The position numbers and the translations under genes were made by a program. A DNA stretch of 64,000 bases from the IMG/VR virus record IMGVR_UViG_3300029288_000055, positions 298,764 through 362,763 of that record; one strand, written 5' to 3'. Below, piece by piece: positions 2,739 to 57,460 of the stretch. The stretch comes from a virus. Lineage: Duplodnaviria > Heunggongvirae > Uroviricota > Caudoviricetes. The first letter of the stretch is position 1; every line of letters begins with the position of its first letter. The notes under the pieces were generated by a model, which saw only the letters and a list, made by a program, of their open reading frames with translations, was not told where the DNA came from and did no database searches.

Positions 2739-2770
2739 TTGTAACAAATCATAATCAATATACGTATAAG
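2739..2770 (+). promoter_or_regulatory. phage promoter-like motif TTGTAAC-N17-CGTATAAG
   Basis: TTGTAAC at 2739-2745 and CGTATAAG at 2763-2770. It sits 26 nt upstream of the ATG at 2797. Confidence 0.55.
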
Positions 2771-2796
2771 TAATACATAAATCAAAACCAATTATT

Positions 2797-2976
2797 ATGG
2801 AAAGTGAAGAATTAAATGAATTATACGAAAAAAGAAGAGATTTAGCAGAAAAAATTGCTAATTACTTTGGTAATGATGAACCAGATAACAATGATAGTGG
2901 TTATCAAGATTTGTTGACACAATTGGAAAGAATTGAGGGATTAATAGATGATTATATTGATGATCACGATAATTAA
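2797..2976 (+). CDS. small acidic hypothetical protein (59 aa)
   Basis: Not in the ORF track (below 60 aa). MESEELNELYEKRRDLAEKIANYFGNDEPDNND...DDHDN*. Preceded by the promoter motif. Confidence 0.4.
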   Translation: MESEELNELYEKRRDLAEKIANYFGNDEPDNNDSGYQDLLTQLERIEGLIDDYIDDHDN

Positions 2977-2994
2977 CATTTAAATTAAAATGAT

Positions 2995-3384
2995 ATGAAA
3001 AATTTAGTGTCACTTGTTTCTCCAATTTTAGCATTTGTTGTAATGATCTGTTCAGTAAGCTTTATTATTGCAATTGCTTCTCCTTTTTTAACTGAAAAGG
3101 ATATGAAAAAGTATGTCTTGGCTCATAAAGACATGATCAAAAAAGAAGGTAATATCTTAAAAATCCCAAGCACTGATTTTAAGTATTATACTGACATTAC
3201 ATTAAGACTTCTTGATACTAATGATAGCACATACCAAATAGTGTTTTGGGGTGACAGAGATAGTAAACTATGGGATTTTAAACTGGATAAACCTATCACA
3301 GTTACTATCCCATATAACAGATATAAAAATAAAAACGTTAATCTGGACGTAAAGGTATTTGAATTAATTAATAATTTTAAATAA
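2995..3384 (+). CDS. hypothetical protein with an N-terminal TM helix or signal peptide (129 aa)
   Basis: ORF track. Hydrophobic N-terminus LVSLVSPILAFVVMICSVSFIIAIA. Confidence 0.5.
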   Translation: MKNLVSLVSPILAFVVMICSVSFIIAIASPFLTEKDMKKYVLAHKDMIKKEGNILKIPSTDFKYYTDITLRLLDTNDSTYQIVFWGDRDSKLWDFKLDKPITVTIPYNRYKNKNVNLDVKVFELINNFK

Positions 3385-3391
3385 AAATATC

Positions 3392-3907
3392 ATGAAAAAA
3401 GAATGGCGAATTGGTAAGTTAGTAATTGGCAATCCATTTGGATTCTGTTGGCATATTATGTCTCTTATAAGTCTTATTGTTATTGTTGTGGGTGCATGTA
3501 CCATAAAGAAAACAGATGAAAGCACAATTGACCCTAAAGATCAATTTTATCGCAATTTTGATATGATAATTGTTAATATCAATGGTGCTGATACATATAT
3601 TGGTGGTTCAAGTACTTCGGTTAGTGACAGAGATAATCAGCAAACACAAAGTTGTAATGTTATCCTGCTTGAAACCACATACAGGTTTGAAGAAAAATAT
3701 GGTGTACATCATATGTACAGAGAGATCAACACTTGTAAAGACCCGACAGTTACTGAGGATACTAATGGGTGTGGTTGTGGACAAGGATTTCACATTGATA
3801 CTAAATGGCTTTACAATCATAAAGCAGGAGACGAAGTACACTTTGATTACATGCTTAAAAGAAAATTCTTTGAAAGCGAATTGCTCGATGCAAAAAGAAA
3901 TAAGTAA
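3392..3907 (+). CDS. hypothetical membrane-anchored protein (171 aa)
   Basis: ORF track. TM segment SLISLIVIVVGACTI. The stop codon abuts the TTGTAAC motif. Confidence 0.55.
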   Translation: MKKEWRIGKLVIGNPFGFCWHIMSLISLIVIVVGACTIKKTDESTIDPKDQFYRNFDMIIVNINGADTYIGGSSTSVSDRDNQQTQSCNVILLETTYRFEEKYGVHHMYREINTCKDPTVTEDTNGCGCGQGFHIDTKWLYNHKAGDEVHFDYMLKRKFFESELLDAKRNK

Positions 3908-3939
3908 TTGTAACCATATCTTGTCAATTTCCGTATAAG
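3908..3939 (+). promoter_or_regulatory. promoter-like motif TTGTAAC-N17-CGTATAAG
   Basis: TTGTAAC at 3908-3914 and CGTATAAG at 3932-3939. It sits 27 nt upstream of the ATG at 3967. Confidence 0.55.
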
Positions 3940-3966
3940 CATTATGTCTAACTAAAAATAATTATC

Positions 3967-4470
3967 ATGTTTAAAAAATCGGAAGAAAACGGTGAAGTGA
4001 AAGAAAATACAGGAAAACTAATAATGGGTTTAGCTGTTGTTTCTTTTTTGTTTTTTGTGAGTTACGATGTTATAACACATACTAACGGAAAAAAATTGGG
4101 CGAACCAGTTTCTATTCAGAAATACAATACTTTAGAGAAACGCATGAACTATCTTTACTATGAAAACATTGTAAAAAATCAAATACTTTATGATCTGGTG
4201 GTTACAAAGAAATTGGATTCTTCATTTGTATTTTTAGTGTCTGAGCATGTACCTTTGTTTATATTAAATTCTAAAGACAAAAATGTACTACCTGATAGTT
4301 TACCTGATAAAAGACTATTGGCATTGAAATTAAATGCTGTATGCGCTGACTGGTACGAAAGCATACCCTTTATGTTCATGGATGCAAAACATGATAGCGC
4401 ATGGGTGTTAAAGTCTGATAGTTATAAGATTTCAATAGAAATGGCAACCAAATTAAGAACCAAACGATAA
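3967..4470 (+). CDS. hypothetical protein with an N-terminal TM helix (167 aa)
   Basis: ORF track. Confidence 0.55.
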   Translation: MFKKSEENGEVKENTGKLIMGLAVVSFLFFVSYDVITHTNGKKLGEPVSIQKYNTLEKRMNYLYYENIVKNQILYDLVVTKKLDSSFVFLVSEHVPLFILNSKDKNVLPDSLPDKRLLALKLNAVCADWYESIPFMFMDAKHDSAWVLKSDSYKISIEMATKLRTKR

Positions 4471-5718: not shown

Positions 5719-5964
5719 ATGGCAAAATTAATAAAAATTGATCATCAAGGACTTTATCAGTTAAGTCTTTCAGAACTGGAAAGTCTATATAGACTTATTG
5801 ATGAAGGAATGTATGATGGTAATTCTACAGAAGACATTGAAGTAGAAGCAGAAGGTTATCAATATGGTCATGGGGCATGGAAAGAAAAACTCAGAAAGCG
5901 TGAAAAACTACTCAAAGAAATAAAAGGATTTATTAGTACTAAAATTAATATAATTCTTTTGTAA
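5719..5964 (+). CDS. hypothetical protein (81 aa)
   Basis: ORF track. The TAA stop at 5962-5964 lies inside the TTGTAAC box. Confidence 0.45.
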   Translation: MAKLIKIDHQGLYQLSLSELESLYRLIDEGMYDGNSTEDIEVEAEGYQYGHGAWKEKLRKREKLLKEIKGFISTKINIILL

Positions 5965-5990
5965 CTAATCCAGATTAATTTACGTATAAG
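5959..5990 (+). promoter_or_regulatory. promoter-like motif TTGTAAC-N17-CGTATAAG
   Basis: TTGTAAC at 5959-5965 and CGTATAAG at 5983-5990. Confidence 0.55.
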
Positions 5991-6088
5991 TAACACAAGA
6001 AGTTCGTTAAGATAGCCAACTAATAAAGGAGTGGTCATCATCCCACCGATAAATATTGACAAATTTCTTTCACTTAAAACTTGAAATT

Positions 6089-6346
6089 ATGATAAAAACA
6101 ATCGGAGTACATGCAAATATTACAGAAGTCAACACATATGAATTTGATGTTCAGATTGACGAAAATGCTACAAAAGAACAGCAGGATACCGAAGCAAAAG
6201 AAAAAGTAAGAAAATTTCTTTCTGGTAATATTCCTTCTCCAAACATTGGTTCACCTTTCATTGATGGTGTTAAATGTATTGACGTGGACTATGGAGTTTA
6301 TTGTGTTAACAATGTTGAAGACGAAATCGAAGTAAACGAAGGTTAA
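6089..6346 (+). CDS. hypothetical protein (85 aa)
   Basis: The track ORF at 6056 opens with a TTG. The first in-frame ATG is at 6089 (MIKTIGVH...). Confidence 0.45.
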   Translation: MIKTIGVHANITEVNTYEFDVQIDENATKEQQDTEAKEKVRKFLSGNIPSPNIGSPFIDGVKCIDVDYGVYCVNNVEDEIEVNEG

Positions 6347-6909: not shown

Positions 6910-7203
6910 ATGGGAACAATACGTAATACCAGTAAACAATACAAGAATGAGCTTCGCAGAATAAACATGGAGAAGTTTGCTCTTGAAAATCGTATTAAAG
7001 CAAGGGCAAGTGATCTTATTGAAAGATTTCCCTATGTTATTATCGTTGAAAATTACATGGGTTCAAAAGGTAATTTACTTGCAAAAAATTGTCAGGATTT
7101 AGATCAATACAATATTGATCGAATACTTGATTTTATTGAAATTATTGAAGCAGATATTGCCAATAAACATCAGTACAAACAAATAAGAATTGAAGGTTTT
7201 TAA
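6910..7203 (+). CDS. hypothetical protein (97 aa)
   Basis: ORF track. The stop codon abuts a CTGTAAC box. Confidence 0.5.
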   Translation: MGTIRNTSKQYKNELRRINMEKFALENRIKARASDLIERFPYVIIVENYMGSKGNLLAKNCQDLDQYNIDRILDFIEIIEADIANKHQYKQIRIEGF

Positions 7204-7235
7204 CTGTAACCTTTTAAATACAATTTTCGTATAAG
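7204..7235 (+). promoter_or_regulatory. promoter-like motif CTGTAAC-N17-CGTATAAG
   Basis: Variant first box. It sits 25 nt upstream of the ATG at 7261. Confidence 0.5.
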
Positions 7236-7260: not shown

Positions 7261-7761
7261 ATGGATTTCAAATCAAAAAGACTTTACAAAAAAAGAGCAA
7301 AACAATATTTTTGTTTGGCTTGGGGATTAACATTTTTATTCTTTCTATTTGGAATGGCATGTATTATAGCACTTGTTACATCAACCCATCTTATTGACAA
7401 TTCTAAAGGTGATGGTTTTGGGATAATGTTATTATTTGTATCTCCATTAATTTTTGCTATGATATCTGGCATTATCGGTCAATTCTTTGTAGATAGAAGG
7501 TGTAAATATAAAGCACAAATTCTTGAATATCGCCAGAGGAAATTCTTTACACAGACTATGAATTTAATTACATCGGGTAAATTAAATGAAGCCATTGATG
7601 TATATACAGAATTAGTTACTAAACAAGATTTCCGCAGGTTCTTATATCCATTTTTTCTTAACGAATTCTTACATTCAACTAATGAAGATCAAAAGAAAAA
7701 AGGTGAAGAAAAACTGGCTACAGTACTTGAAATATATAATCCAAATGATGTAAAATTTTAA
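7261..7761 (+). CDS. membrane protein (166 aa, about 3 TM)
   Basis: ORF track. Hydrophobic helices. Confidence 0.55.
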   Translation: MDFKSKRLYKKRAKQYFCLAWGLTFLFFLFGMACIIALVTSTHLIDNSKGDGFGIMLLFVSPLIFAMISGIIGQFFVDRRCKYKAQILEYRQRKFFTQTMNLITSGKLNEAIDVYTELVTKQDFRRFLYPFFLNEFLHSTNEDQKKKGEEKLATVLEIYNPNDVKF

Positions 7762-7763
7762 TT

Positions 7764-7943
7764 ATGCAAGCATCTATAAAAATACCAATAGCCAGTGATA
7801 AACTGATCACATGGTTGGAGAAAAGAAAAACCAGACTCCAGAAAGAACATAATGAAGCAAAGACCCTTAAAATTAAAATAAATAAGGGTGTTCAGTTGAA
7901 ACAAGTAAAAAATTGCTTGGATTATATTTATACACATTTGTAA
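7764..7943 (+). CDS. small basic hypothetical protein (59 aa)
   Basis: Not in the track. MQASIKIPIASDKLITWLEKRKTRLQKEHNEAKTLKIK...*. The TAA stop is embedded in the TTGTAAC box. Confidence 0.35.
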   Translation: MQASIKIPIASDKLITWLEKRKTRLQKEHNEAKTLKIKINKGVQLKQVKNCLDYIYTHL

Positions 7944-7969
7944 CTTATAATAACCACAACTCGTATAAA
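7938..7969 (+). promoter_or_regulatory. promoter-like motif TTGTAAC-N17-CGTATAAA
   Basis: It sits 22 nt upstream of the ATG at 7992. Confidence 0.5.
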
Positions 7970-7991: not shown

Positions 7992-8426
7992 ATGAAAAAA
8001 GCAAAATGGGTTTTTCAATTTTATAAAAGTTATTGTTTTAAATTAATTCCGAATTTCCGTAAAAATAAACTTTTATGGAAAGATAAATTTGAATCTCCAA
8101 GATGTGAACTAATTCCACAATTCAGATTTGAATGGTTATGGTTTGGTTTTTATGGTGCGCAAGGCAATGATGAATATTGGGAGCAATGGTTATGGTTATA
8201 TAAATACTGTAATGGTAATATTGAGAAAGCAAAAGAAACATGGGGATGGACGGATTATTATACTAAAAAGTCCACATGGAATGAATTATATGTTAAGTCA
8301 CCAATTGATTATGTCAGTAAAACTGATAGATTTTGTATGGATGGTGATGGTAACCCTCTTGATGATTATGGTACTGGTTTAGGTGGTCACCCTCTGACAC
8401 TTAAAGAATTTAAAGAAAAGCATTAA
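7992..8426 (+). CDS. hypothetical Trp-rich protein (144 aa)
   Basis: ORF track. Multiple W/Y repeats (WLW, YWEQWLWLYKY). Confidence 0.55.
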   Translation: MKKAKWVFQFYKSYCFKLIPNFRKNKLLWKDKFESPRCELIPQFRFEWLWFGFYGAQGNDEYWEQWLWLYKYCNGNIEKAKETWGWTDYYTKKSTWNELYVKSPIDYVSKTDRFCMDGDGNPLDDYGTGLGGHPLTLKEFKEKH

Positions 8427-9145: not shown

Positions 9146-9511
9146 ATGAAAATACATACATCTATAACATTGCCGGTTGTTAACATTAAACTTTTAATCA
9201 TTGAAGTTGATGATAATAAAGTTAAAAATAGTTTTGACAACAGGTTTCAATTAGCTGTTGAATTCAGAGGCAAAAGATTTTTTCCAAAAAACAAACAAAA
9301 ATTTTTGCAATTCGAAGATAATAATTACCTTTATACCATGTTAACAAACAAACTTGGCACAGAAACTTATCTTAATTCTGAACTTTTTTTCAGCTTAAAG
9401 CTGTGCGACAGATTGTTAGAAGATGTTAATACAGAAGCAATGCATTATATATCATTATATAATCAAGGTACTGATCTCAAGAAAGAACTTAAGAAAACCT
9501 ATAAATTTTAA
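9146..9511 (+). CDS. hypothetical protein (121 aa)
   Basis: ORF track. Confidence 0.5.
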   Translation: MKIHTSITLPVVNIKLLIIEVDDNKVKNSFDNRFQLAVEFRGKRFFPKNKQKFLQFEDNNYLYTMLTNKLGTETYLNSELFFSLKLCDRLLEDVNTEAMHYISLYNQGTDLKKELKKTYKF

Positions 9512-9512
9512 G

Positions 9513-9764
9513 ATGAGCAGACAAACAGTATATCACGATAACAGATTAACCGTAGTTACTGGCATTGATCATGCAATAGGTCAATTCTTTCAGATATATG
9601 ATAAGGAAATGGAAGGCGAAACTCTTGATGGTGAGGGATTAGTTTTAGACTGGTCGGAGTTATTCGGCTTTGAAACAAACCTTACTGGATATTGTCCCAA
9701 ATTAGGTGTACAGGCAATAATATATCAGTATATTGAAGAACATGATGAAGAAGATATTAACTAA
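9513..9764 (+). CDS. hypothetical acidic protein (83 aa)
   Basis: In-frame ATG of the track ORF 9423..9764 (MSRQTVYHDN...), directly after the upstream stop. Confidence 0.5.
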   Translation: MSRQTVYHDNRLTVVTGIDHAIGQFFQIYDKEMEGETLDGEGLVLDWSELFGFETNLTGYCPKLGVQAIIYQYIEEHDEEDIN

Positions 9765-9780
9765 TTTTAAATAAAAGCAT

Positions 9781-10227
9781 ATGATAAAGTACGTAATCGG
9801 TGATGCAACAAATCCAATTGGCGAAGGTGAAAAATATATTTTACATTGCTGTAATGATAAAAATAAATGGGGTGCAGGATTCGTTCTTGCTCTTTCTAAA
9901 CGTTGGAAAAAACCTGAAAAAATGTATCGTGCAGAAACTAAATATATTCTTGGTACAGTTCATATTGTGCGGGTTGAAAAAGACATTTGTGTTATTAATA
10001 TGATTGCACAGCATGATATTAAACCTGATGCTAATGGTGTGTCTCCAATTCGTTATGATGCTCTTAGAGAATGCTTAATATTCATAAATGAAATTGCTGT
10101 TGGAACAGGAGCAACTATACACGCACCGAGATTTGGGGCGGGTCTTGCAGGGGGAGATTGGAATAGAATCGAACAAATCATTAAAGAGACTATAACAGTT
10201 GATGTAACAATATATGATCTTAAATAA
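9781..10227 (+). CDS. macro domain protein of the TARG1/OARD1 (C6orf130-like) family
   Basis: GDATNP...LHCCNDKNKWGAGFVLAL, HAPRFGAGLAGGDW and the C-terminal VDVTIYDL align with TARG1 blocks (GDLF...AHCISEDCRMGAGIA / MPRIGCGLDRL...ITVYTL). Confidence 0.7.
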   Translation: MIKYVIGDATNPIGEGEKYILHCCNDKNKWGAGFVLALSKRWKKPEKMYRAETKYILGTVHIVRVEKDICVINMIAQHDIKPDANGVSPIRYDALRECLIFINEIAVGTGATIHAPRFGAGLAGGDWNRIEQIIKETITVDVTIYDLK

Positions 10228-10233
10228 AAATAT

Positions 10234-10587
10234 ATGATAACTAACAATCCTCATTACATAATGTACGGACATTTTAGGACTGCAAAAGCTAAAGACGGAA
10301 ATGAATATCCATACTTCAATAACATTTATAATCATCCATTTAGTACAGAAATGTGCGGAAATGAAAAAATATACCATCTAACTTTTGAACCTCACATAAA
10401 TCAAGAAAGAGATAAAGAAGAAGTTGAATATTGGGGTTGGTTAGATAATGATAGTGAATTATCAATGGTATATGCAAACTACCTTCTTTTTGATATGTGC
10501 TTTCCTAATGGTGCAGAAGCAACAGAAGCATTCGGACGAGGTAAAAGAATTAAATTGGAATTAACTAACTTTAAAGATAATTATTAA
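10234..10587 (+). CDS. hypothetical protein (117 aa)
   Basis: ORF track. Confidence 0.5.
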   Translation: MITNNPHYIMYGHFRTAKAKDGNEYPYFNNIYNHPFSTEMCGNEKIYHLTFEPHINQERDKEEVEYWGWLDNDSELSMVYANYLLFDMCFPNGAEATEAFGRGKRIKLELTNFKDNY

Positions 10588-10604
10588 CTAAAAATAATAA
10601 ATTT

Positions 10605-10961
10605 ATGAATATAATCAATGTAAATGGGAAAAATTTTGATGTTGTTGGACGAAATATAGTAGTTCGCAATGGTAAAGTAATTGTCGATGGTATTGAAGTT
10701 GTAGGTGATCTTAAAAATGAAATAAAAGTTACCTTTACAGGTGATTTGGCTAATTTAGATTGTACTGAAGCTGTTATAAATGGCAATGTACAAAAAATAG
10801 ATGCCACAACAATAACAATAAATGGCAATGTTACAGGTGATGTGGATGGCACAAACATAGTATGTGGTGATGTTGGCGGTAATGTTGAGGGCACAAATGT
10901 TAAATGCTGGGAGGTCAAAGGTGATATAGATGCAGTCACTTTTAAAAAAAGAAAAGAATAA
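10605..10961 (+). CDS. bactofilin-like beta-helical repeat protein (118 aa)
   Basis: Tandem repeats INGNV.K.D / V.GDV.G.N / VEGTNV typical of the bactofilin (DUF583/CcmA) fold. Confidence 0.5.
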   Translation: MNIINVNGKNFDVVGRNIVVRNGKVIVDGIEVVGDLKNEIKVTFTGDLANLDCTEAVINGNVQKIDATTITINGNVTGDVDGTNIVCGDVGGNVEGTNVKCWEVKGDIDAVTFKKRKE

Positions 10962-11002
10962 CAATAAAAATAATATGATGAAAAGTTAAATTATTACTAC
11001 TT

Positions 11003-11416
11003 ATGCCAAATGAGAGTTTTATTACGCACGACTTCAAATTACCAAATCACAGTAATGAACTGTGCAAAGCTGAAGAAGTCATAGAGAAATTAAAAAACAA
11101 ATTTAAATTAATGGGGGAAAATAAAACAATAAACGACAAAAATCACGATGAACTATACAACGAAATTATTAGAATATTAGATTATGTAGGTAGATTATCA
11201 ATGCCAGTATTTGCAATTGAAGAAGACATGGAAAAGATTTACACGTTACAATATTCTAAATATCCCGAACTCGCAAAAAAACTTATGAATGATCATTATG
11301 AAGAAATACATCATCCATATACGCTTTTGAAAAATCGATGCTTTCGAATGCTCGAAGAACTTGATACACTTTATCAAAAAACCTTTAAAAAGAATCCACC
11401 AAATTGGAATATATAA
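11003..11416 (+). CDS. hypothetical protein (137 aa)
   Basis: ORF track. Confidence 0.5.
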   Translation: MPNESFITHDFKLPNHSNELCKAEEVIEKLKNKFKLMGENKTINDKNHDELYNEIIRILDYVGRLSMPVFAIEEDMEKIYTLQYSKYPELAKKLMNDHYEEIHHPYTLLKNRCFRMLEELDTLYQKTFKKNPPNWNI

Positions 11417-11450
11417 AAACACAATGTACTAACAATTAAAAATTATAATT

Positions 11451-11792
11451 ATGATCGAAGCACTTTTAACTATTTTCTTTTCAGTACTTGCAATAGTAGG
11501 CATTATAGTCTTTTTTCTTGCATATGATGCACTCTCATGGGGTTTGGTATGTTATAAATTCTGGTATTGGTTTCTCCTGCCAGTTTTCCCAACATTGCCT
11601 CAGATCGTATTCTGGCAAGCTGTTGGCTTAATGTTCTTTATTGCTTTATTTAAAAACACAACACATCAAATAATCAAAAAAGAATATTGTGATAGCCCAG
11701 CACAATTAATTACTACGTTTATTATTCCTTGGGTTGCACTCGCAACTGGTTATTTCACTTATGCATTGGTAATACCTAAACTAATTCATTAA
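11451..11792 (+). CDS. membrane protein (113 aa, 3-4 TM)
   Basis: Hydrophobic helices. Followed by hairpins. Confidence 0.55.
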   Translation: MIEALLTIFFSVLAIVGIIVFFLAYDALSWGLVCYKFWYWFLLPVFPTLPQIVFWQAVGLMFFIALFKNTTHQIIKKEYCDSPAQLITTFIIPWVALATGYFTYALVIPKLIH

Positions 11793-12645: not shown

Positions 12646-13254
12646 TTATGCAGGAACTGATTTTAATTCACCAGTAATTTTACCCCAACTTGTACCGATT
12701 AAGTTTTTATCATCTGAAGATAATTCTTTAAATTCAGGATTAAATTTTATTTCTTGCAATTTTTCTTGTATTGGAATCAAAAGTTTAATTTGTTGAATCC
12801 ACAAAGGATTAAGAATAAAATCTCTTCTTTTTTCTTGCCTTCTTCTATATATGATGAAGTCTTTAAGGTTAGCAACCCCCAATTCCCATTCACCACAAAC
12901 CATAAGGGACATACAGAGTTCACCCCTGCCATCCAGTGTCCAAACACAACTGGCAACTGCTCCCCAATGATTAGATAATCTATAAAGATTGTTCTCTTTG
13001 TCGATCAGGTATTGGCTACCAGTCTTACTCTTGAAGTTATAAATGATATTAGGCTGTTCAGCAATAAGATTAAATTGCCAGTGAGCGTTTTTACCTTCAT
13101 CGATTTTAACTTCTTTGAAGTCAGCTTTGGTTGATATTTGAAAATTCGTGGTATCGATATGTGTATAACAGTCACGATAGTGAATAAATTTGATTCGTTG
13201 TAAATTTCTTGCAAACGAATCTGCCTGTTGTATTTCTATTCTTGGTATATTCAT
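12646..13254 (-). CDS. hypothetical protein (202 aa)
   Basis: ORF track. The ATG lies only 5 nt after the CGTATAAG box, so a leaderless mRNA is possible. Confidence 0.55.
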   Translation of the reverse strand: MNIPRIEIQQADSFARNLQRIKFIHYRDCYTHIDTTNFQISTKADFKEVKIDEGKNAHWQFNLIAEQPNIIYNFKSKTGSQYLIDKENNLYRLSNHWGAVASCVWTLDGRGELCMSLMVCGEWELGVANLKDFIIYRRRQEKRRDFILNPLWIQQIKLLIPIQEKLQEIKFNPEFKELSSDDKNLIGTSWGKITGELKSVPA

Positions 13255-13259: not shown

Positions 13260-13291
13260 CTTATACGTATGAAATACCTAAAAGGTTACAG
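13260..13291 (-). promoter_or_regulatory. promoter-like motif CTGTAAC-N17-CGTATAAG (minus-sense)
   Basis: The + strand reads CTTATACG-N17-GTTACAG. Confidence 0.5.
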
Positions 13292-13570
13292 TTTCTTTTT
13301 ACAAGGACAACTTTCAAGATGAACCAGACCACCTTTTACATTATTACAAAGATACTGGTGTCCATCCACTTCAATAATCTGATAAGAAGTCCAAGCACCA
13401 CCATCAATTATAGTAATTCTACTTTTTGGCTTTTCTTCTTCAGTCTTTGTTGTGCCAAAAAAATCATCTTTTTTAGGTTCTTTCTTTGAACAAGCAAATA
13501 GCGTTAATGCAAATATTACTGCAACTATAAAAGGAGTAACATTAAATAAAAATTTATCTATTTTTTTCAT
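13286..13570 (-). CDS. putative lipoprotein (94 aa)
   Basis: Signal peptide plus lipobox ...LTLFAC|SKKEP. Confidence 0.5.
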   Translation of the reverse strand: MKKIDKFLFNVTPFIVAVIFALTLFACSKKEPKKDDFFGTTKTEEEKPKSRITIIDGGAWTSYQIIEVDGHQYLCNNVKGGLVHLESCPCKKKL

Positions 13571-43167: not shown

Positions 43168-43988
43168 ACTATTTGTTTTTTACGATCAAGGTGACTAAAT
43201 TCATGGCTTCTTATACATGAAGCACAATGCGGAATAAATACTCCATAAAATATCTTGTTAAATTCTTTAAATCTCTCAGCAAAACCACCATCAATATATT
43301 CATATACATCAGCATATTTCCATACACCAAAACCACATTTGAATATGTCACCAACTTCATCAATAAGAAATGAATATTGATTCTTTGGATTCTGGCAATA
43401 ACATCCCATCATTGAATAGAATCCAAATGAACCTTCTGCTCTACCAATAGGCACTAAATTAAATTCACTTTCATCAAGATCAGAAGTTCTGGTAAGAATA
43501 TTATTTTTTCTAAGTAATTTATCTGCCTTTACAATATTTTTATTAGTATGCCACATATCTTTTGAGATCACGACATAACAGTTATTGTATTTGGTGAAAT
43601 GTTTAGCAAAACTTGGTTCTTCAACTACCCAATCACCATTAGAAACAACTCTTGCACAAGTTACTGCAGGAACAAGCAAGTCCAGTATTTCACGCCAGTT
43701 CGGATTGCAAAAGATTTCGCCACCCATAAGATTGATCTGGTAAACTTCATTTTTAATTAAAAACTTTGCAATTTTTTTGGCTGATTCAACAGTCATATGA
43801 GTATCTTTGTTTGGAGAACAAGAATAACAACAATGCGAACATGATTGTGTGCATTTAAGAGTAATGCGAATAGTTGCGGTGAGTTTGCGGGGACACTCTT
43901 TTTTGATTGCACAGATTTCGCAATTACAAGTGCCTACTCCACCTTTAGCTTTGCATACTTTCTCCAGACAAATATTACAAGGTTTCAT
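43164..43988 (-). CDS. radical SAM enzyme with an N-terminal Cys-rich extension
   Basis: CTQSCSHC matches CxxxCxxC, GGEIF is a GGE-type motif, and a CNIC...C..C..C...C..C cluster sits at the N-terminus. Confidence 0.5.
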   Translation of the reverse strand: MKPCNICLEKVCKAKGGVGTCNCEICAIKKECPRKLTATIRITLKCTQSCSHCCYSCSPNKDTHMTVESAKKIAKFLIKNEVYQINLMGGEIFCNPNWREILDLLVPAVTCARVVSNGDWVVEEPSFAKHFTKYNNCYVVISKDMWHTNKNIVKADKLLRKNNILTRTSDLDESEFNLVPIGRAEGSFGFYSMMGCYCQNPKNQYSFLIDEVGDIFKCGFGVWKYADVYEYIDGGFAERFKEFNKIFYGVFIPHCASCIRSHEFSHLDRKKQIV

Positions 43989-44228: not shown

Positions 44229-44423
44229 CTATCGTAATTTCATATGATGAATAAATTCAAAATTTTTGTCATTAATACACTCATAACAAATGAGTTTCCA
44301 TTCGGGATGTAATTTTGTTTGCTCTTTAATTGTCTTGTCGTCAAGATATTTTTTATGATCTTTTTCATTCCAAGAATTACTGAATTTTCCAGTTTCGATA
44401 TTAAGCCAACAATATTTTTTCAT
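44229..44423 (-). CDS. hypothetical protein (64 aa)
   Basis: ORF track. Confidence 0.45.
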   Translation of the reverse strand: MKKYCWLNIETGKFSNSWNEKDHKKYLDDKTIKEQTKLHPEWKLICYECINDKNFEFIHHMKLR

Positions 44424-44449: not shown

Positions 44450-44480
44450 TTATACGATATTTTTGTGAAAAAGTTACACT
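44450..44480 (-). promoter_or_regulatory. promoter-like motif GTGTAAC-N16-CGTATAAT (minus-sense)
   Basis: The + strand reads ATTATACG-N16-GTTACAC. The upstream gene's stop is inside the box. Confidence 0.45.
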
Positions 44481-45529
44481 TTTTCAATTAATTCATTCTT
44501 GATAATTTTATTTGTGCTCCAGTGACCATGATTATTCTGTACGTGATTTTTCCGTACAAATTTGCCACACACATTGCGAAATTCAGCGTAATGAAATTCT
44601 CTTGCAAGTCTGACCACATAACCTTCCATAGTATCAGAAGTTGCTTTCACCTTTTTATTGAGATTTTCGATCACCTTCATATCCCAAATACCTTTATATA
44701 AAACAGGCATAAGTGTAAGTCCAAGTAGTTGTGCCCATTCTTCAGTTTCGTGCCAACTCAGACAAATGTTTTTTTCATTCCAGATACTGAACATATAGAA
44801 ATATGTACTGAGTGCATTCCCTTTTTCTTTTCTATAATGAATAGCATGTTTGGCATACATATTTTCACCACAAACTCGCCAGCCTTCAGGTATTTCATAA
44901 CCTACTTGTGCCCAAAGACTTTTAACCCAATTACGTGAAGGATGTGAACCACTGTCAAGAGATCGGGCATGTGTGTATGTTTTACCAAAAGTTGTGTTTT
45001 CACCATCAAGTTTTTCACCGATTATAACTTCTTCCTCTTCAAAAACTTCAACATTAGTCATCATACGATCATCCCTGTTCATACCTTCTGACCAAGGCAA
45101 ATGATATGTTCTTGGATATTTAACCATATCAGTGAATAATCCAAGTACATTACCTTGTTTCAAAATTTTTTGTACCGATTCATCTTCGAATAATTCACCT
45201 TTGAGTCTTGTGCCGTTTTTCTGTATTTCATTTCCCCATTTATCATATTCTGCATCTTGATAGAAATGATCTGGCATTATTATTTTGGTTATACCAGCAG
45301 CTTTACGAATTTCTTCGCAACTAAGTGTTGTTTCTTCTGCTTGAATATGGTGCTTACTACATAAACTTGCACCATTATTGATGAAGTATCCCTGAGTAGT
45401 ACCAAACAAGCGTCTTTCGACTATATGGTGAGCGTCTTGTGCTTGTTCATGGCATATAATACATTTAAATCCGTCTCTTTTGAAAACGGATTCTCTGAAG
45501 GTATCTCTATCTAATAATATCTCTTCCAT
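44474..45529 (-). CDS. HNH endonuclease fused to an Rnl2-like RNA ligase (nucleotidyltransferase)
   Basis: N-terminal CIICHEQAQDAHHIVER...N...CSKHH is an HNH motif. The ligase motifs are KYPRTYHL, motif I KLDGEN, motif III VCGENMYAKH, motif IV EGYVVRL and motif V KFVRK. Confidence 0.6.
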   Translation of the reverse strand: MEEILLDRDTFRESVFKRDGFKCIICHEQAQDAHHIVERRLFGTTQGYFINNGASLCSKHHIQAEETTLSCEEIRKAAGITKIIMPDHFYQDAEYDKWGNEIQKNGTRLKGELFEDESVQKILKQGNVLGLFTDMVKYPRTYHLPWSEGMNRDDRMMTNVEVFEEEEVIIGEKLDGENTTFGKTYTHARSLDSGSHPSRNWVKSLWAQVGYEIPEGWRVCGENMYAKHAIHYRKEKGNALSTYFYMFSIWNEKNICLSWHETEEWAQLLGLTLMPVLYKGIWDMKVIENLNKKVKATSDTMEGYVVRLAREFHYAEFRNVCGKFVRKNHVQNNHGHWSTNKIIKNELIEKV

Positions 45530-45534: not shown

Positions 45535-45565
45535 ATTATACGAAATAAATTTAAATTGGTTACAA
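45535..45565 (-). promoter_or_regulatory. promoter-like motif TTGTAAC-N16-CGTATAAT (minus-sense)
   Basis: The ATG of the HNH-ligase gene lies 5 nt downstream, which suggests a leaderless transcript. Confidence 0.5.
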
Positions 45566-46891: not shown

Positions 46892-46976
46892 GATATTTTC
46901 AGTTATTAGGTTTTACAATTATTAATGAATGACAAAGGTATATTACTTTTTCTTATTTCCAAATCTTTTTTAAAAA

Positions 46977-47848: not shown

Positions 47849-48230
47849 GTGCTTCTTTAACTACTTCAGTTAAATCCCAATAATCATCCATTGACATATC
47901 AAGTTTGCCATTCATTGACATACGAACATTTCCATGTTTTTTATTATATTCATCATGATTACAGTTGCCCTTGTTCCATTTAACAACTTTTGATTTTTTA
48001 TAAATCACAATAAGTAATTGCACACCATCAAGAGTTTTACGTATTTCAATACGTTCATCATCACCTTTGATGTGTTTTGCTTTCCAAAGGTTCATATCTT
48101 CATTACTCATGTTTGGGACATAAGTACCTGCAATACCAGAATCGCTCAGAAACATTTCATTATGTTTATCAGCACTACGAAGTTTCTTGGGTATTTCAAA
48201 TGATAAAATATTATTGTTTGCTGGTCTCAT
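47832..48230 (-). CDS. hypothetical protein (132 aa)
   Basis: ORF track. Confidence 0.55.
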   Translation of the reverse strand: MRPANNNILSFEIPKKLRSADKHNEMFLSDSGIAGTYVPNMSNEDMNLWKAKHIKGDDERIEIRKTLDGVQLLIVIYKKSKVVKWNKGNCNHDEYNKKHGNVRMSMNGKLDMSMDDYWDLTEVVKEALEILL

Positions 48231-48561
48231 TTAAATCACTATTTGTATTAAATTCCAATAAATATTTAATTAATGCATCAAAATCTTCATTTGAATAATC
48301 ACCAAATTTTTCAACTAATTCTTTTGAAGTAATTGTTACATTATAAAGATCACAAAATTCTTTATATGCAATATTTAAGTCGTTTTTATCTTTTTCTTCA
48401 ACTCTTTTATAATAATATGTCCATTGTAAAAGATCGCCATTAAACCAAAGTTTAAGTGTTTCAAACGAATTACTCAAACTCAAATTATATTTTTTTAATT
48501 CAGTACAATACTTTTCTGTTGGTTCAACGAAGTTTTTGATATTTACTACAGGCGTATCCAT
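48211..48561 (-). CDS. hypothetical protein (116 aa)
   Basis: ORF track. Confidence 0.55.
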   Translation of the reverse strand: MDTPVVNIKNFVEPTEKYCTELKKYNLSLSNSFETLKLWFNGDLLQWTYYYKRVEEKDKNDLNIAYKEFCDLYNVTITSKELVEKFGDYSNEDFDALIKYLLEFNTNSDLNETSKQ

Positions 48562-48586: not shown

Positions 48587-48617
48587 ATTATACGGATAAT
48601 ATTTGAATTAGTTACAA
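48587..48617 (-). promoter_or_regulatory. promoter-like motif TTGTAAC-N16-CGTATAAT (minus-sense)
   Basis: Near-identical over about 25 nt to the copy at 57430. The upstream stop is embedded in the box. Confidence 0.5.
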
Positions 48618-48809
48618 ATTTTCGGGTTTATTTTCAGATTTTTCAGAATTTTTTATGACCATTGAAACTGTCCAGATGAATAAGAAACCAAAAATTATCG
48701 TACATAAATACCCCCAAAAAAATTCTTCTGGTTTGATTGAAGTCATCCATACAGCATATGCATATACAATAATATAGAGGGCATATATGATGGCTTTGAT
48801 AAACTTCAT
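48612..48809 (-). CDS. small membrane protein (65 aa)
   Basis: Two TM helices. Confidence 0.45.
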   Translation of the reverse strand: MKFIKAIIYALYIIVYAYAVWMTSIKPEEFFWGYLCTIIFGFLFIWTVSMVIKNSEKSENKPENL

Positions 48810-50306: not shown

Positions 50307-50370
50307 ATATTTTTTAAATTAGATAACAAATATAATACTCTTTTCTTTAAATACAAATGCTTTATTAAAA

Positions 50371-50583
50371 TTATGCGTACCAACTAATATAATATCCATC
50401 AATACCCATAACTATTTCACCACAACGTGTTATCATGCCGATTGCGTTTTCAGCCTCATAATAAATATATCTTCCGATTCTATAGTACATAATTTTAAGT
50501 ATTAAGCCATGTAATAAATCTATTCCATTGTTTTGTAGCATATTCTGGAAGACTGAAAGTGGGGTTGTTGATCTTAGTCTCAT
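50371..50583 (-). CDS. hypothetical protein; start uncertain
   Basis: The track ORF overlaps 50495..50779 by 89 nt. The internal Met at about 50490 (MYYRIGRYIYY...) would remove the overlap. Confidence 0.3.
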   Translation of the reverse strand: MRLRSTTPLSVFQNMLQNNGIDLLHGLILKIMYYRIGRYIYYEAENAIGMITRCGEIVMGIDGYYISWYA

Positions 50584-50779
50584 ATGTGTTATTATTTTTA
50601 CGTATGTTTATTATTGTTTCAGATTTTCCTGCAAATCTTATAATTGTAGTACAAATTAGAATTACAAATCCGAATGGTATTAATACATGTGCTTTAGCAC
50701 TAAGTGCTGTAATAAACATAATTAATGCACAAATATAATTTATAATTATCAGTGCTTGTAATTGTTCTTTCTTTTTCAT
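50495..50779 (-). CDS. membrane protein (94 aa)
   Basis: Two TM helices. Confidence 0.5.
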   Translation of the reverse strand: MKKKEQLQALIIINYICALIMFITALSAKAHVLIPFGFVILICTTIIRFAGKSETIINIRKNNNTYETKINNPTFSLPEYATKQWNRFITWLNT

Positions 50780-50802: not shown

Positions 50803-50834
50803 CTTATACGATAATCAATAAAAAAAGGTTACAA
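50803..50834 (-). promoter_or_regulatory. promoter-like motif TTGTAAC-N17-CGTATAAG (minus-sense)
   Basis: It sits immediately downstream (in minus-sense) of a terminator hairpin. Confidence 0.55.
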
Positions 50835-50863
50835 AAAAAGGGAGAATTTCTTCTCCCTTTTTG
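50833..50863 (-). terminator. rho-independent terminator
   Basis: GGGAGAA-TTTC-TTCTCCC stem-loop, flanked by A7 on one side and T5 on the other. Confidence 0.6.
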
Positions 50864-52466: not shown

Positions 52467-53243
52467 TTACTTAGCGTATCTTAAATTTACAGGATTCTTG
52501 CTCCTGTAATTATATATACTTTCAATTAACAGTTTATATTGTTCAACTGATGCACATCTAACCAATGTAGTTGGCTGTTTTTCCAATTTCTGGAGCATAG
52601 TATCATGATTGAATTTTGGGTTCTTGAATAATGGAATAAGAGTTCTCACAAATGCACCATTATTATAGAACTTGAAAAATGGTTTATATTCAATAATTTT
52701 TGCTGCATTTTCATAAGCCAATTTCAAATCAGGCACTTTAAATTGACCTTCTTGAAAGAAATGTATTCTTTCATTATCATTTTTTGCACCTTTCTGCAAT
52801 CTTTTTCTGTTATTAACACCAGCAATGTTGTTTGTCATAATTGCTTCAGCAACACCAATTGAAAATTCAGGGTAGTTTGTCATGAATTCTTTCAGTTGTT
52901 TATAGGGTTTTGAATCCAATTCGCAAAATGATTCAAGAAATGCACTTTTGCTCCATATTTTATCAACGGTATTATAACGTTGACAATCTTTTAGGCGTAA
53001 ACCGGGGATGACACGATAATGAACCTCCAGACCTAATCTGCTGCATGCTTCAAGACGGTGTTGTCCATCAATAATTTCAAAAAATTCATTTACGATTAAC
53101 AAGGTGAACAAATACTCCTTTTTAAAGGATTTCATCAGTCTGATAACATGTGCTTCATTTCTGGGTCTATTACCAATGATTCTTTTGAACATCCCATAAT
53201 TTTTCGTTGTGAAAATTGTTGCATTACTGTCTACTGTACTCAT
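52467..53243 (-). CDS. ParB/Srx-fold protein with a DGQHR motif (ParB-like nuclease / DndB / DUF262-like)
   Basis: FEIIDGQHRLEA motif. Confidence 0.5.
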   Translation of the reverse strand: MSTVDSNATIFTTKNYGMFKRIIGNRPRNEAHVIRLMKSFKKEYLFTLLIVNEFFEIIDGQHRLEACSRLGLEVHYRVIPGLRLKDCQRYNTVDKIWSKSAFLESFCELDSKPYKQLKEFMTNYPEFSIGVAEAIMTNNIAGVNNRKRLQKGAKNDNERIHFFQEGQFKVPDLKLAYENAAKIIEYKPFFKFYNNGAFVRTLIPLFKNPKFNHDTMLQKLEKQPTTLVRCASVEQYKLLIESIYNYRSKNPVNLRYAK

Positions 53244-53284: not shown

Positions 53285-53315
53285 ATTATACGAATATAAA
53301 TTAAAAATGTTACAA
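53285..53315 (-). promoter_or_regulatory. promoter-like motif TTGTAAC-N16-CGTATAAT (minus-sense)
   Basis: The + strand reads ATTATACG-N16-GTTACAA. Confidence 0.5.
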
Positions 53316-55130: not shown

Positions 55131-55577
55131 TTAGTATAATAATTTATAAGCACCCCACATTAGTATAAGATGCATTGTATTGTCAGTTAAAGTATAAACA
55201 ATTGCCGTAAATCCACCTTCAAGTGCTTCATGAAGATTTACTCCACTTGGCTTTTCTGGACGCATATAAGCCATTCCAAGCATCCAATCGTGTTTATTTA
55301 CATAATCTTTCATTCCTTTTCCTTTAATATAATGCATATATTTTTCTGCAAGAGAAAATTTGTCAATAAAAAAATGCGAAAAAAACACTGCTACTATCCA
55401 GAGTAATTGAAAATTCCACATAAATAAACAAATAGCAAAAGTATAAAGAATACAATGCACAAACGCTGCAAGCCAACCAATTTTGGTGTTTTTGGACTTG
55501 TTCATTGCCATCCATTCCGTTTGCATGAGGAAGTCCCCACATAAATGACCAAGTAACATTTGAAACATCATTTGCAC
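55131..55577 (-). CDS. membrane protein (148 aa)
   Basis: Three to four TM helices. Confidence 0.55.
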   Translation of the reverse strand: MQMMFQMLLGHLCGDFLMQTEWMAMNKSKNTKIGWLAAFVHCILYTFAICLFMWNFQLLWIVAVFFSHFFIDKFSLAEKYMHYIKGKGMKDYVNKHDWMLGMAYMRPEKPSGVNLHEALEGGFTAIVYTLTDNTMHLILMWGAYKLLY

Positions 55578-55930
55578 ATTTCTTTAAGTTCTTCCCATGT
55601 AGGCTTTGTGTCTTCGGGTACAAAAAATTCCATCAGATCATCTTCATATTCATATATTAAAGATGTTTTATCTCCTTCCATTTTAAGATACGCACTGTCA
55701 TATGGCGCACCATCCATAATAAAATGATTGACACTGGATGAATGAATATAATATGGGTCAGTTTTGTCCAGACAAGCTACGGTAATAACAAATTTCATCA
55801 TATCCCACCAATCTTTCACAAAATTACCAGAGTTAAATAGCTTTTCTTCATTATTAAAATGAAGTGAAACTGACTCATATTTTAAGTCTTTTTCATTTCC
55901 TTCATCATAATTTATTCCAATTACTGCCAT
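55568..55930 (-). CDS. hypothetical protein (120 aa)
   Basis: ORF track. Confidence 0.55.
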   Translation of the reverse strand: MAVIGINYDEGNEKDLKYESVSLHFNNEEKLFNSGNFVKDWWDMMKFVITVACLDKTDPYYIHSSSVNHFIMDGAPYDSAYLKMEGDKTSLIYEYEDDLMEFFVPEDTKPTWEELKEMCK

Positions 55931-55949
55931 AAATTTATTTTGTTTAACA

Positions 55950-55981
55950 CTTATACGATATCTTTAATTAAAAAGTTACAA
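55950..55981 (-). promoter_or_regulatory. promoter-like motif TTGTAAC-N17-CGTATAAG (minus-sense)
   Basis: The + strand reads CTTATACG-N17-GTTACAA. Confidence 0.55.
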
Positions 55982-55983
55982 AT

Positions 55984-56475
55984 TTATATACTATTTTTGT
56001 GAAATTCTATTGCACCATCAAGATTAGCCATTAAAACATCACTATCAAGTTTTGAAAAATGATCTACATGATTCAATTTTATAACAACACCTTTCTTGGA
56101 ATTTTTTATAATATTTTTTACGTTTTCAAAATCATCGTAATCTGTCTGGTATACACCAACAGCAATTGTCATAAGATTTTCAGGTACATTAATTTCAATT
56201 GGATGATTATTTTTCTTCTTTTTTCTTGGTACTAAAATAGTATATTTTGGATTGACAATATTTTTATCCACATCGTATGTGAATTTAAAATCAAATATAA
56301 AACGTACTTTATTTAATGGTATCTGGTGAAGTGAAAGCAGTTCTTTAGCTGCTTTAATTTGTTGCTTTTCTATTTCAGTTAATTCTTCACTGTTAACAAT
56401 AACAGTATCAAAGTTCGGTGGAGTTTGAACTTCAACAATTTTAAAAAATGGAAATTTACGAATTAATTGTAACAT
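55984..56475 (-). CDS. hypothetical protein (163 aa)
   Basis: ORF track. Confidence 0.55.
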   Translation of the reverse strand: MLQLIRKFPFFKIVEVQTPPNFDTVIVNSEELTEIEKQQIKAAKELLSLHQIPLNKVRFIFDFKFTYDVDKNIVNPKYTILVPRKKKKNNHPIEINVPENLMTIAVGVYQTDYDDFENVKNIIKNSKKGVVIKLNHVDHFSKLDSDVLMANLDGAIEFHKNSI

Positions 56476-57029
56476 TATCTTATATGTTCAAGAAACCAAT
56501 TATAACATTTTTGAGTTTTATCACCAGTTTCGTTATCACAACGATAGAACTTGGCATATAAATCAACAATACCTTCCATTAATAAACCATCAATAAGTCT
56601 TATTACACGATTTTCTGCAGTAGTCCAATCACCATCTCTATCGCCTTTTGACCATGCATTATATGCATCATCATGACGTTGAATGATTTGCAAAATATCT
56701 TGATCTGCAGGTATGAATTTCTCAGTAAATTTTCGAGCTATCATACCATGATGATTTTCACCAGATTTTGGCATTGATCTATCAACTTTATGTTTGAAAG
56801 TATCATGCACCATTGCAATTAAACGCAACGCTTTTCTTTCGTCTTCAGTTTCAGCATATTGATCAATGTTTGCAAGCACTTCTTTGATATGGTAAATTAC
56901 CTGACCTTCTTTATGTCCGGGTCTTGGTTTACCATAATAACAACCAGTAATAAAATCTTTGTTATTACAAATTACAGTTTCAATTTCATTTTCTGGATTG
57001 ATTATTGAAACTATTTCGTTCTTATTCAT
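56475..57029 (-). CDS. putative HD-domain phosphohydrolase
   Basis: H..HD pattern in AMVHDTFKH, followed by NHHG and RHDDAYN. Confidence 0.4.
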   Translation of the reverse strand: MNKNEIVSIINPENEIETVICNNKDFITGCYYGKPRPGHKEGQVIYHIKEVLANIDQYAETEDERKALRLIAMVHDTFKHKVDRSMPKSGENHHGMIARKFTEKFIPADQDILQIIQRHDDAYNAWSKGDRDGDWTTAENRVIRLIDGLLMEGIVDLYAKFYRCDNETGDKTQKCYNWFLEHIR

Positions 57030-57030
57030 T

Positions 57031-57423
57031 TTATAATTTTATATTATTTATTAAACGTTCTTTCATTTTTACAATTGTTTCTTCAGGAACACCATGCGAA
57101 TTTTTATTTCCGTGTCTATTTTCAACTACAATAAAATATGTAATATAACTGAAATCTTCAGCCATATCAACATATGGTCGCATTATCCTTTCAGTAACAT
57201 TAGTGTTAGCAATAATAATTGGTGAAATGCCTTTTTGCATGAATCTTCTGCACTTACGTTCACACCATTCATGTGCTTCACCTATGTATCTGTAGTCCCA
57301 TGCATATATGCCTTTACGAGTATACCAATCATCTGCGGTACAAATTGCTTTTCCAAGTAATTTCGCAAATGTTGATTTACCTGAATTTGGTAATCCACGT
57401 ACTATAATTAATACTTTTTTCAT
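57031..57423 (-). CDS. small P-loop kinase (AAA_33 / polynucleotide-kinase-like)
   Basis: Walker A GLPNSGKST at the N-terminus. 130 aa. The ATG lies 6 nt after the promoter box. Confidence 0.5.
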   Translation of the reverse strand: MKKVLIIVRGLPNSGKSTFAKLLGKAICTADDWYTRKGIYAWDYRYIGEAHEWCERKCRRFMQKGISPIIIANTNVTERIMRPYVDMAEDFSYITYFIVVENRHGNKNSHGVPEETIVKMKERLINNIKL

Positions 57424-57429
57424 TGTGTA

Positions 57430-57460
57430 ATTATACGAAAATTATTTGAATTGGTTACAA
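57430..57460 (-). promoter_or_regulatory. promoter-like motif TTGTAAC-N16-CGTATAAT (minus-sense)
   Basis: The + strand reads ATTATACG-N16-GTTACAA. Confidence 0.5.

Follow-up and report, generated by a model that had tools for sequence, protein, structure and literature searches.

A 64,000-nucleotide stretch of a Caudoviricetes genome (IMG/VR record IMGVR_UViG_3300029288_000055, positions 298,764 to 362,763; hereafter the window) carries a bipartite motif, TTGTAAC-N16/17-CGTATAA, again and again between its genes, which raises the question of what these repeats are and what reads them. A previous reading of the letters alone (the sequence-only reading) had taken them for a phage-specific promoter class, for example a middle or late class read by a phage sigma factor, a host RNA polymerase (RNAP) modifier or a phage RNAP. 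Our analysis indicates that the 19 sites in the window are very likely promoters of the extracytoplasmic function (ECF, group 4) sigma type, with tGTAAC plus a T-tract at -35, a spacing of 16-17 nt and CGTATA(A) at -10, and that they would be read by an ECF sigma encoded by the phage. The earlier proposal holds in that the repeats look like promoters and a phage sigma is favoured, but the promoter type is a known one and the late class found no support, an early/middle class fitting instead. Among the three readers that had been offered, the phage sigma is the one supported, because ECF sigma genes are associated with the motif in related phages.

The repeated motif and its consensus

We ran the exhaustive pattern search that the sequence-only reading had suggested on the window. 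The results showed 14 exact matches to TTGTAAC-N15-18-CGTATAA in the 64 kb, with 0.00 expected from 100 dinucleotide-preserving shuffles, and both half-sites were over-represented on their own (TTGTAAC, 27 vs 14.1 expected; CGTATAA, 26 vs 5.4 expected). Allowing one mismatch added five copies (1351+, 7204+, 13261-, 27866- and 44450-), all of which deviate solely in the first T of box 1, to give a total of 19. Allowing two mismatches yielded two further matches only, at 16087+ and 30738+, both within genes, and these were treated as chance. The earlier count of at least 18 copies was thus confirmed and its coordinates were right to within 1 nt, the copy at 1351 having been overlooked.

The placement of the copies was assessed on a map of 148 open reading frames (ORFs), which lie on the + strand up to ~12.6 kb and on the - strand beyond and give a coding share of 92%. 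Each of the 19 copies lies between genes, in the orientation of the gene downstream, and no antisense copy with one mismatch or fewer relative to the local genes was found in the window, as the sequence-only reading had described. The longest ORF for rIIB begins at 1341, which makes the copy at 1351 look intragenic; alignment to the homologue in locus L167 and the NCBI gene call of 401 amino acids (aa) move the start to 1440, and the intergenic status of this copy follows from that shift. The earlier remark that the motif is missing from most + block genes is correct, yet it misleads, since the + block is the denser of the two, with 6 copies over 12.6 kb against 13 over 51 kb in the - block. 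In seven copies (5959, 7938, 13261, 25008, 27866, 44450 and 48588) the upstream stop codon is the TAA of the TTG-TAA-C box, a feature that had been recognised correctly but listed for five copies, and seven more copies lie 0-6 nt from the upstream stop codon. The spacer is N17 in 13 copies and N16 in six, and N15 or N18 in none. The base after CGTATAA is G in 9/13 N17 copies and T in 5/6 N16 copies (Fisher p = 0.011), so the two subclasses proposed earlier are real in the window, but the rule is lineage-specific and fails in relatives. Copies 48588 and 57431, which had been called identical over about 25 nt, agree at 34 of 38 positions with a longest exact run of 12.

The consensus over the window and 176 exact copies of relatives is tTGTAAC-cTTTt-(N)-ta-CGTATAAt, with a spacing of 16/17. 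AAC and CGT are invariant in 19/19 window copies. The relatives' copies were picked by an exact search for TGTAAC and CGTATA, which makes the invariance of their core a matter of construction, and their flanks match beyond the searched core. The window motif has the bipartite -35 'AAC' / -10 'CGT' of ECF promoters and their fixed spacer of ~16-17 nt. It also has the T-rich tract directly 3' of the -35 element that is common, though not universal, among them, seen as TGTAAC-cTTTt in the N17 class of the window and in the relatives. Sigma-X promoter sites read TGTAAC-N17-CGAC. The sites of Bacillus subtilis sigma-W are tGAAACnTTTt with a -10 of CGTA, and the -35-proximal T-tract is a recognised ECF feature (PMC5758882). 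By its pattern, the motif is not a novel promoter type and is nearly the B. subtilis sigma-W consensus. Box 1, the spacing and the CG before TATAA look odd against sigma-70 because an ECF sigma demands exactly these.

T4 MotA-box and T4 late TATAAATA motifs were rejected on sequence pattern against their known consensus, no search having been made for them, and a single-subunit RNAP promoter was rejected in the same manner, likewise with no search made for it. Single-subunit phage RNAP promoters are contiguous, not bipartite with a variable-sequence 16/17 spacer. Literature searches on the motif and on ECF sigmas of jumbo phages, crAss-like phages and phages of Bacteroidota turned up no published description of this sigma clade or promoter.

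ECF sigma genes beside motif arrays in related phages

We reached relatives in IMG/VR through the RNA ligase and then scanned IMG/VR for the motif itself, which yielded contigs with dense clusters. The relatives found through the RNA ligase carry the motif at orthologous places. Sigma genes were found at loci L080, L068 (two genes), L086, L088 and L136, mostly beside or inside a motif cluster, and further ones at L149, L154 and then L157-L168. A search with the sigma alignment A5 gave 12 loci, on contigs of 88-365 kb, with a sigma of 33% or higher identity to the query. Of the exact motifs at these loci, 138 follow the sigma gene on its own strand, 7 precede it on that strand and 4 are antisense; in 20 control loci with more distant ECF sigmas, AT-rich loci included, there was no exact motif. 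The arrays of the exact motif start right after the sigma gene in 10/12 related contigs. The loci L162 and L166 hold just 0-1 exact copies, L162 with several one-mismatch copies after its sigma gene. Two Joint Genome Institute (JGI) contigs (242 kb and 153 kb), found independently through a protein database, showed the same sigma-array layout.

The phage sigmas pass the Pfam cut-offs for Sigma70_r2 and Sigma70_r4_2 as well as the cut-off of the TIGR02937 (sigma70-ECF) model. For 3/5 tested phage sigmas the top named NCBIfam model is SigW, at 88 bits against an equivalog cut-off of 209 bits, and by this measure the phage sigma is not a SigW orthologue. The best match to a solved structure is B. 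subtilis SigW (5WUQ, E = 6.5e-18), which agrees with the SigW-like promoter. The nearest cellular homologues are from Balneolaceae/Fodinibius and Cyclobacteriaceae, at ~34% identity. Upstream of the sigma genes, L136 has an exact motif directly before its sigma gene, and about half of the sigma genes are preceded by a host-type TAnnTTTG element (9 vs 3.05 expected, p = 0.004). These upstream sequences tentatively suggest that the sigma is first expressed from the host sigma-A, possibly with weak positive feedback thereafter.

Two further features of the sigma loci were observed. In most loci a divergent gene for a 189-aa protein lies directly upstream of the sigma gene (L161:9111-9680(-), with homologues in L157, L149, L163, L162, L159, L068, L164, L168, L165, L166 and L167). 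This protein, which may be a functional partner, has 35-70% identity and is better conserved than the sigma; neither Pfam nor PHROG gave a match, and the window lacks it. One sigma subfamily in A5 (e.g. L080:840-1532) has a conserved N-terminal extension of ~45 aa, YNKSEILKRAWKLFK...CLRQSWxIAKNG, and ORFs of dozens of unrelated viral contigs of 30-60 kb (loci L189-L236) match by this segment alone.

The link from these sigma genes to the window runs through contigs that share its gene order. In close relatives the motif is conserved at orthologous positions, and relatives encode an ECF sigma with both sigma2 and sigma4 next to the arrays, one of them on a contig syntenic with the window. This 102-kb contig, IMGVR_UViG_3300048838_001248, matches the window's - block with 18 homologues (47-78% identity) in conserved order (L003). 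Elsewhere on it (L237), rIIB (58% identity) is followed by homologues of window genes 9146-11792 with the same convergent junction, and the motif stands before and after rIIB, matching window copies 1351 and 2739. The same contig has an unbroken array of motif-headed small genes (L032 and L161), and its ECF sigma (L161) shares the strand of rIIB, from which it lies ~18 kb upstream. On a 326-kb contig (L167), the sigma lies 7 kb upstream of the rIIB homologue (46% identity). From this synteny we infer, as a strong inference, that the window's own genome carries an ECF sigma that reads these sites.

Several results weigh against this assignment. No sigma gene was found in the window with Pfam (148 ORFs and 43 mid-size ORFs), with phmmer from RpoE and SigW seeds, or with four phage-sigma hidden Markov models (HMMs) run with --max on the six-frame translation. 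Among the matches listed (the best 120) in two database searches, no sigma was traced to the 363-kb genome of the window, and a scan of a genome contig database (genome_contigs) with close sigma relatives gave distant bacterial ECFs only. In the closest relative that was fetched, L243 (66-80% identity), there is no sigma within 9.6 kb upstream of the + block, where large + strand genes stand. In the related contigs, most sigma genes are preceded only by degenerate xGyAAC-N16-nGTAnA sites, which leaves classic ECF autoregulation a tentative reading, and an anti-sigma factor was not identified, the genes adjoining the sigma being without a family match.

Alternatively, the sites could be ECF-type promoters read by a host ECF stress sigma, with the phage itself encoding none. 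The lack of a sigma gene in the window, and of one traceable to its contig, is in keeping with this reading. ECF sigmas are numerous in Bacteroidota (PMC13472631), and the nearest cellular homologues of the phage sigmas come from Balneolaceae/Fodinibius and Cyclobacteriaceae. However, 10/12 related sigma contigs have arrays right after the sigma gene, one of them syntenic with the window, a conditionally active stress sigma would be a fragile basis for dozens of phage genes, and the sigma search saw 64 kb of 363 kb. We therefore regard a host ECF sigma as an unlikely reader of these sites.

A host primary sigma of the sigma-70/sigma-A family, reading TATAAT/TATAAG as -10 and a TTGTAA or GTAACN variant as -35, is less probable again and in our view very improbable. 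It would account for the TATAA(T/G) within the -10 box, and the N16 class, read as GTAACN-17-TATAAT, scores 10/12 as sigma-70-like (53313-53285). The sequence-only reading had likewise noted a second box resembling TATAAT; the resemblance is there, but it overlooks the invariant CG ahead of it. This CG and the invariant C of AAC are foreign to sigma-70. With TTGTAA as -35 the spacer becomes 19-20 nt, and the N17 class reaches 18 nt only with a poor -35 hexamer. A -35 near TTGACA at 17±1 nt from TATAAT was thus not found; of the two classes, N16 alone can be fitted, with some forcing, to GTAACN-17-TATAAT. The region shows no excess of sigma-70-like sites (75 vs 77.2 expected), and the motif co-occurs specifically with ECF sigma genes.

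The host, moreover, looks like a member of the Bacteroidota, whose sigma-A recognises TTTG / TAnnTTTG, a form that the window has at two separate sites. The repeated motif lacks the -7 TAnnTTTG and -33 TTTG of Bacteroidota sigma-A. That motif was rejected as the explanation, TAnnTTTG not being enriched in the window (104 vs 119 expected); its bipartite form, TTTG-N19-21-TAnnTTTG, was weakly enriched (10 vs 5.2 expected). The earlier statement that the repeats fit neither E. coli sigma70 nor the Bacteroidota consensus was borne out.

A mainly non-promoter role, as sites for a single-subunit RNAP or a regulator or as recombination cassettes that shuffle small genes, is the least probable of all: a conserved element that separates most small ORFs and at times is joined to a terminator hairpin does recall the cassettes of the promoter-early stem-loop (PeSL) type (PMC2839356, PMC4122927), and the -35 box lies inside a terminator-like hairpin in 38/199 relatives' copies, but no RNAP gene was seen in the window by Pfam ORF scans, the constrained distance to the ATG, the strict orientation and the match to the ECF consensus speak for transcription initiation, and a recombination role would add to a promoter function, not replace it.

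Predicted start sites, transcription units and host

We infer both the start sites and the timing of the proposed ECF class from sequence. The distance from CGTATA to the ATG was bimodal in 261 non-redundant copies, with a sharp class at 6-8 nt (17 copies), almost none at 9-16 nt and a main class at 17-30 nt. This distribution fits a fixed start about 7-9 nt after the -10 element, with very short leaders avoided. Transcription is accordingly predicted to begin ~7-9 nt after CGTATA. Five window genes have their ATG at the predicted start and would give leaderless mRNAs, and the remaining genes would have A-rich leaders of 10-25 nt without a Shine-Dalgarno sequence. The five are those for which an ATG shortly after the second box had been noted before; it follows CGTATAA by 5-7 nt, and the leaderless prediction made for them is supported by the 6-8 nt class.

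These five copies are all on the - strand. The copy at 13261-13291 (CTGTAAC-N17-CGTATAA(G), one mismatch) uses its box TAA as the stop of 13286-13570 and lies 6 nt from the ATG of 12646-13254. The exact copy at 25008-25038 (N17, G) likewise contains the stop of 25033-25893 and is followed after 6 nt by the ATG of 24579-25001, and the copy at 27866-27895 (ATGTAAC-N16-CGTATAA(C), one mismatch) contains the stop of 27890-28183 with 5 nt to the ATG of 27543-27860. The exact copy at 45536-45565 (N16, T) stands 6 nt before the ATG of the RNA ligase gene, 44474-45529. At 57431-57460 an exact copy (N16, T) is placed 7 nt before the ATG of 57031-57423, which is AAA_33 kinase-like and is followed by the HD-domain gene 56475-57029 (both by Pfam).

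On the + strand, the first copy, 1351-1381 (ATGTAAC-N17-CGTATAA(T), one mismatch), is upstream of rIIB with its start at 1440, and a motif precedes rIIB at the same place in the relatives L237, L239, L240 and L167. The exact copy TTGTAAC-N17-CGTATAA(G) at 2739-2769 lies 27 nt before gene 2797-2976. At 3908-3938, an exact copy (N17, G) abuts the stop of 3392-3907 and stands 28 nt before gene 3967-4470, and the exact copy at 5959-5989 (N17, G), whose box TAA is the stop of 5719-5964, is followed by ORF 6056-6346 after a 66-nt leader. The copy at 7204-7234 (CTGTAAC-N17-CGTATAA(G), one mismatch) abuts the stop of 6910-7203, lies 26 nt before gene 7261-7761 and has its -35 box spanned by a weak hairpin. 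The last one, at 7938-7968 (N17, A; exact), ends 7764-7943 with its box TAA and is placed 23 nt before gene 7992-8426.

The other copies on the - strand are all exact but one. At 21088-21118 (N17, G) the copy abuts the stop of 21119-21493 and lies 40 nt before gene 20157-21047; those at 33932-33962 (N17, T) and 37607-37637 (N17, A) lie 20 nt before gene 33495-33911 and 29 nt before gene 37344-37577, respectively. The one-mismatch copy at 44450-44479 (GTGTAAC-N16-CGTATAA(T)) has as its box TAA the stop of the RNA ligase gene, stands 26 nt before gene 44229-44423 and has a weak hairpin across its -35 box. The copy at 48588-48617 (N16, T) ends 48612-48809 with its box TAA and is found 26 nt before gene 48211-48561. 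At 50804-50834 (N17, G) the copy comes directly after a terminator-like hairpin at 50835-50862 and 24 nt before gene 50495-50779. Gene 52467-53243, with a weak GmrSD_N match, follows the copy at 53286-53315 (N16, T) after 42 nt, and gene 55568-55930 follows that at 55951-55981 (N17, G) after 20 nt. Hairpins at window copies are rare, namely the abutting one at 50835-50862 and the two weak ones at 7204 and 44450. Fused promoter-terminators were seen in the relatives (38/199 copies; e.g. L157:16630, L161:12584, L158:13087), with the -35 in a GC-rich hairpin and its T-run as the spacer.

The class looks early/middle and accessory rather than late, because the genes it serves are rIIB, the RNA ligase, the kinase-like/HD pair and small unknown ORFs, and because the arrays in relatives begin right after the sigma gene. 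A late-promoter class was rejected on the gene content together with the position next to the sigma gene. In the programme that we propose, the phage ECF sigma would be encoded elsewhere in the 363-kb genome and made early, its gene probably read from a host-type promoter. It would then bind the host core RNAP and direct the holoenzyme to the 19 promoter sites, which would switch on dozens of short units, mostly of one to a few genes, among them rIIB, the RNA ligase, the kinase/HD pair and many small ORFs.

The host is probably a member of the Bacteroidota or a close relative, because there is no Shine-Dalgarno signal, there are TTTG-N19-TAnnTTTG sites, and both the nearest cellular sigmas and the 'sigma-W' of crAss-like phages point there. 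Upstream of 147 window start codons there was no Shine-Dalgarno signal (9 vs 6.9 expected), and A was strongly preferred at -3, -6 and -11 to -13 (n=147). A-rich initiation regions without Shine-Dalgarno sequences are a Bacteroidota trait. Two intergenic, co-oriented TTTG-N19-TAnnTTTG sites, at 46933-46963(-) and 50327-50357(-), are candidate host-type promoters and would form a second class in the window. 'Sigma-W' homologues are carried by crAss-like phages. A megablast of 20 kb against GenBank phages gave no match, which indicates that there is no cultured close relative.

The window proteins also map to a 362,763-bp NCBI contig filed as a 'Candidatus Paceibacterota bacterium' metagenome-assembled genome (MAG) (MFA5207437.1, MFA5207546.1, MFA5207579.1; WC428_02155 to 02865). 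This contig is most likely a mis-binned jumbo phage, because it has rIIB, a Dda-like helicase, an RNA ligase and many tiny ORFs, and has relatives in IMG/VR.

Other elements were recorded in the window and its relatives. The 853-aa Dda/PIF1-like superfamily 1 (SF1) helicase at 58555-61116(-) contains an intein, whose Hint and LAGLIDADG homing-endonuclease domains fall near residues 90-380, and relatives align to the helicase parts only. A full-length TnpB/IS605 OrfB at 37966-39147(-), with HTH_OrfB_IS605, OrfB_IS605 and Cas12f1-like TNB domains, lies inside the phage gene block, and TnpB homologues stand at non-syntenic places in the relatives L004 and L075. The Pfam scan of the window ORFs found NADAR (E = 1.5e-48) and the Tad4 Thoeris inhibitor (E = 2.8e-25), both counter-defence-related, as well as a peptide deformylase with a SEC-C motif (41630-42205), a radical SAM protein (43164-43988) and a NUDIX protein (61354-61962). 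Rfam found no known RNA family and ARAGORN no tRNA in the window. The relatives have tRNA genes (L165:~11111; L161:112-184 and 767-862), the one in L165 apparently directly after an ECF-type promoter. Several relatives also have a conserved non-coding hairpin element of ~45-75 nt, AGGCAGGGTAAAACTTGGGTGCAGTAATCCGACCCTACCT then TTTAGAAnnATTCTAAAT, right after an ECF-type promoter (L032:~5006(-), L159:14771, L160:16817 and 19150, L162:19775, L164:14644, L165:14414). Substitutions on both sides of its stem look compensatory, it has no Rfam match, and it is absent from the window.

Significance and comparison with known systems

If a phage ECF sigma reads these sites, uncultivated giant phages gain a concrete transcription programme in which a single sigma family and a single short consensus go with a start site that can be predicted, and transcription units become annotatable across small genes that fill hundreds of kilobases and otherwise resist annotation. 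Being compact, near the sigma-W consensus and apparently anti-sigma-free, the promoter-sigma pairs are candidate orthogonal expression parts. The class with its ATG at +7 to +9 is a well-delimited natural collection of genes predicted to be leaderless, in hosts of a group that makes no use of Shine-Dalgarno sequences, and a contig labelled as a Paceibacterota MAG in NCBI is flagged as most likely a mis-binned jumbo phage. We further raise, as a tentative possibility, that a large uncultivated clade of 90-360-kb phages, probably on Bacteroidota, transcribes most of its non-structural genome in hundreds of near-monocistronic units, all controlled by a single ECF sigma that the phage encodes itself and that has no anti-sigma, with the promoter joined to the stop codon or terminator of the gene before it and, for a fixed subset, to a leaderless ATG as well. 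The cassettes could in that case also be PeSL-like recombination joints that shuffle accessory or anti-defence genes between phages.

The closest promoters are the B. subtilis ECF promoters of sigma-W, and also those of sigma-X, sigma-M and sigma-V, which share the bipartite AAC/CGT layout, the 16-17 nt spacing and the T-tract. The sigma-W pattern is tGAAACnTTTt with CGTA (PMC5758882), against tGTAACcTTTt-CGTATA here. Sigma-W is a cellular envelope-stress sigma of Bacillota, whereas the sigma here is phage-encoded and the host probably belongs to the Bacteroidota. Unlike in the sigma-W regulon, the sites in the phages form arrays in which dozens of nearly identical promoters each serve a single small gene.

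The phage phiEco32 (Kuravirus) is likewise a lytic phage with an ECF-family sigma. Bound to the host RNAP, that sigma directs the transcription of phage genes (Savalia et al. 2008, cited in PMC7881722), and phage ECFs of the phiEco32 type are described in the same source as outliers with promoter elements unlike the canonical ECF ones (Guzina and Djordjevic, cited in PMC7881722). The elements of phiEco32 are thus non-canonical, whereas the promoter here is fully canonical for ECF. In addition, phiEco32 and its kin are ~77-kb podophages of Enterobacteria, while the phages here have 90-360 kb and ~30% GC and seem to apply the promoter to early/middle accessory genes.

The layout of small ORFs, together with the early genes rIIB, Dda-like helicase and RNA ligase, is like that of the T4-like phages with PeSL. 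In those phages, hyperplastic small-ORF regions carry a conserved promoter that is often fused to the previous terminator and undergo modular shuffling (PMC2839356, PMC4122927). PeSL promoters are host sigma-70 early promoters, whereas those here are ECF-type and apparently need a phage sigma. The combination of a host sigma-70 early promoter with a stem-loop terminator that defines PeSL was not found in the window, and the likeness is one of layout.

In the phage sigma cascades of SPO1 (gp28, gp33/34) and T4 (gp55), a phage sigma replaces the host sigma on core RNAP and so switches the temporal class. The sigmas of SPO1 and T4 belong to other sigma families with another consensus, and drive middle/late genes with non-ECF motifs. 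The SPO1 cascade is covered in PMC13401047, and jumbo phages are known to encode sigma factors (PMC7824862). Phage-encoded sigmas, including ECF-family ones, are thus already known; what sets the present system apart is a canonical ECF consensus, dense arrays, the fusion to stop codons or terminators and a subset predicted to be leaderless.

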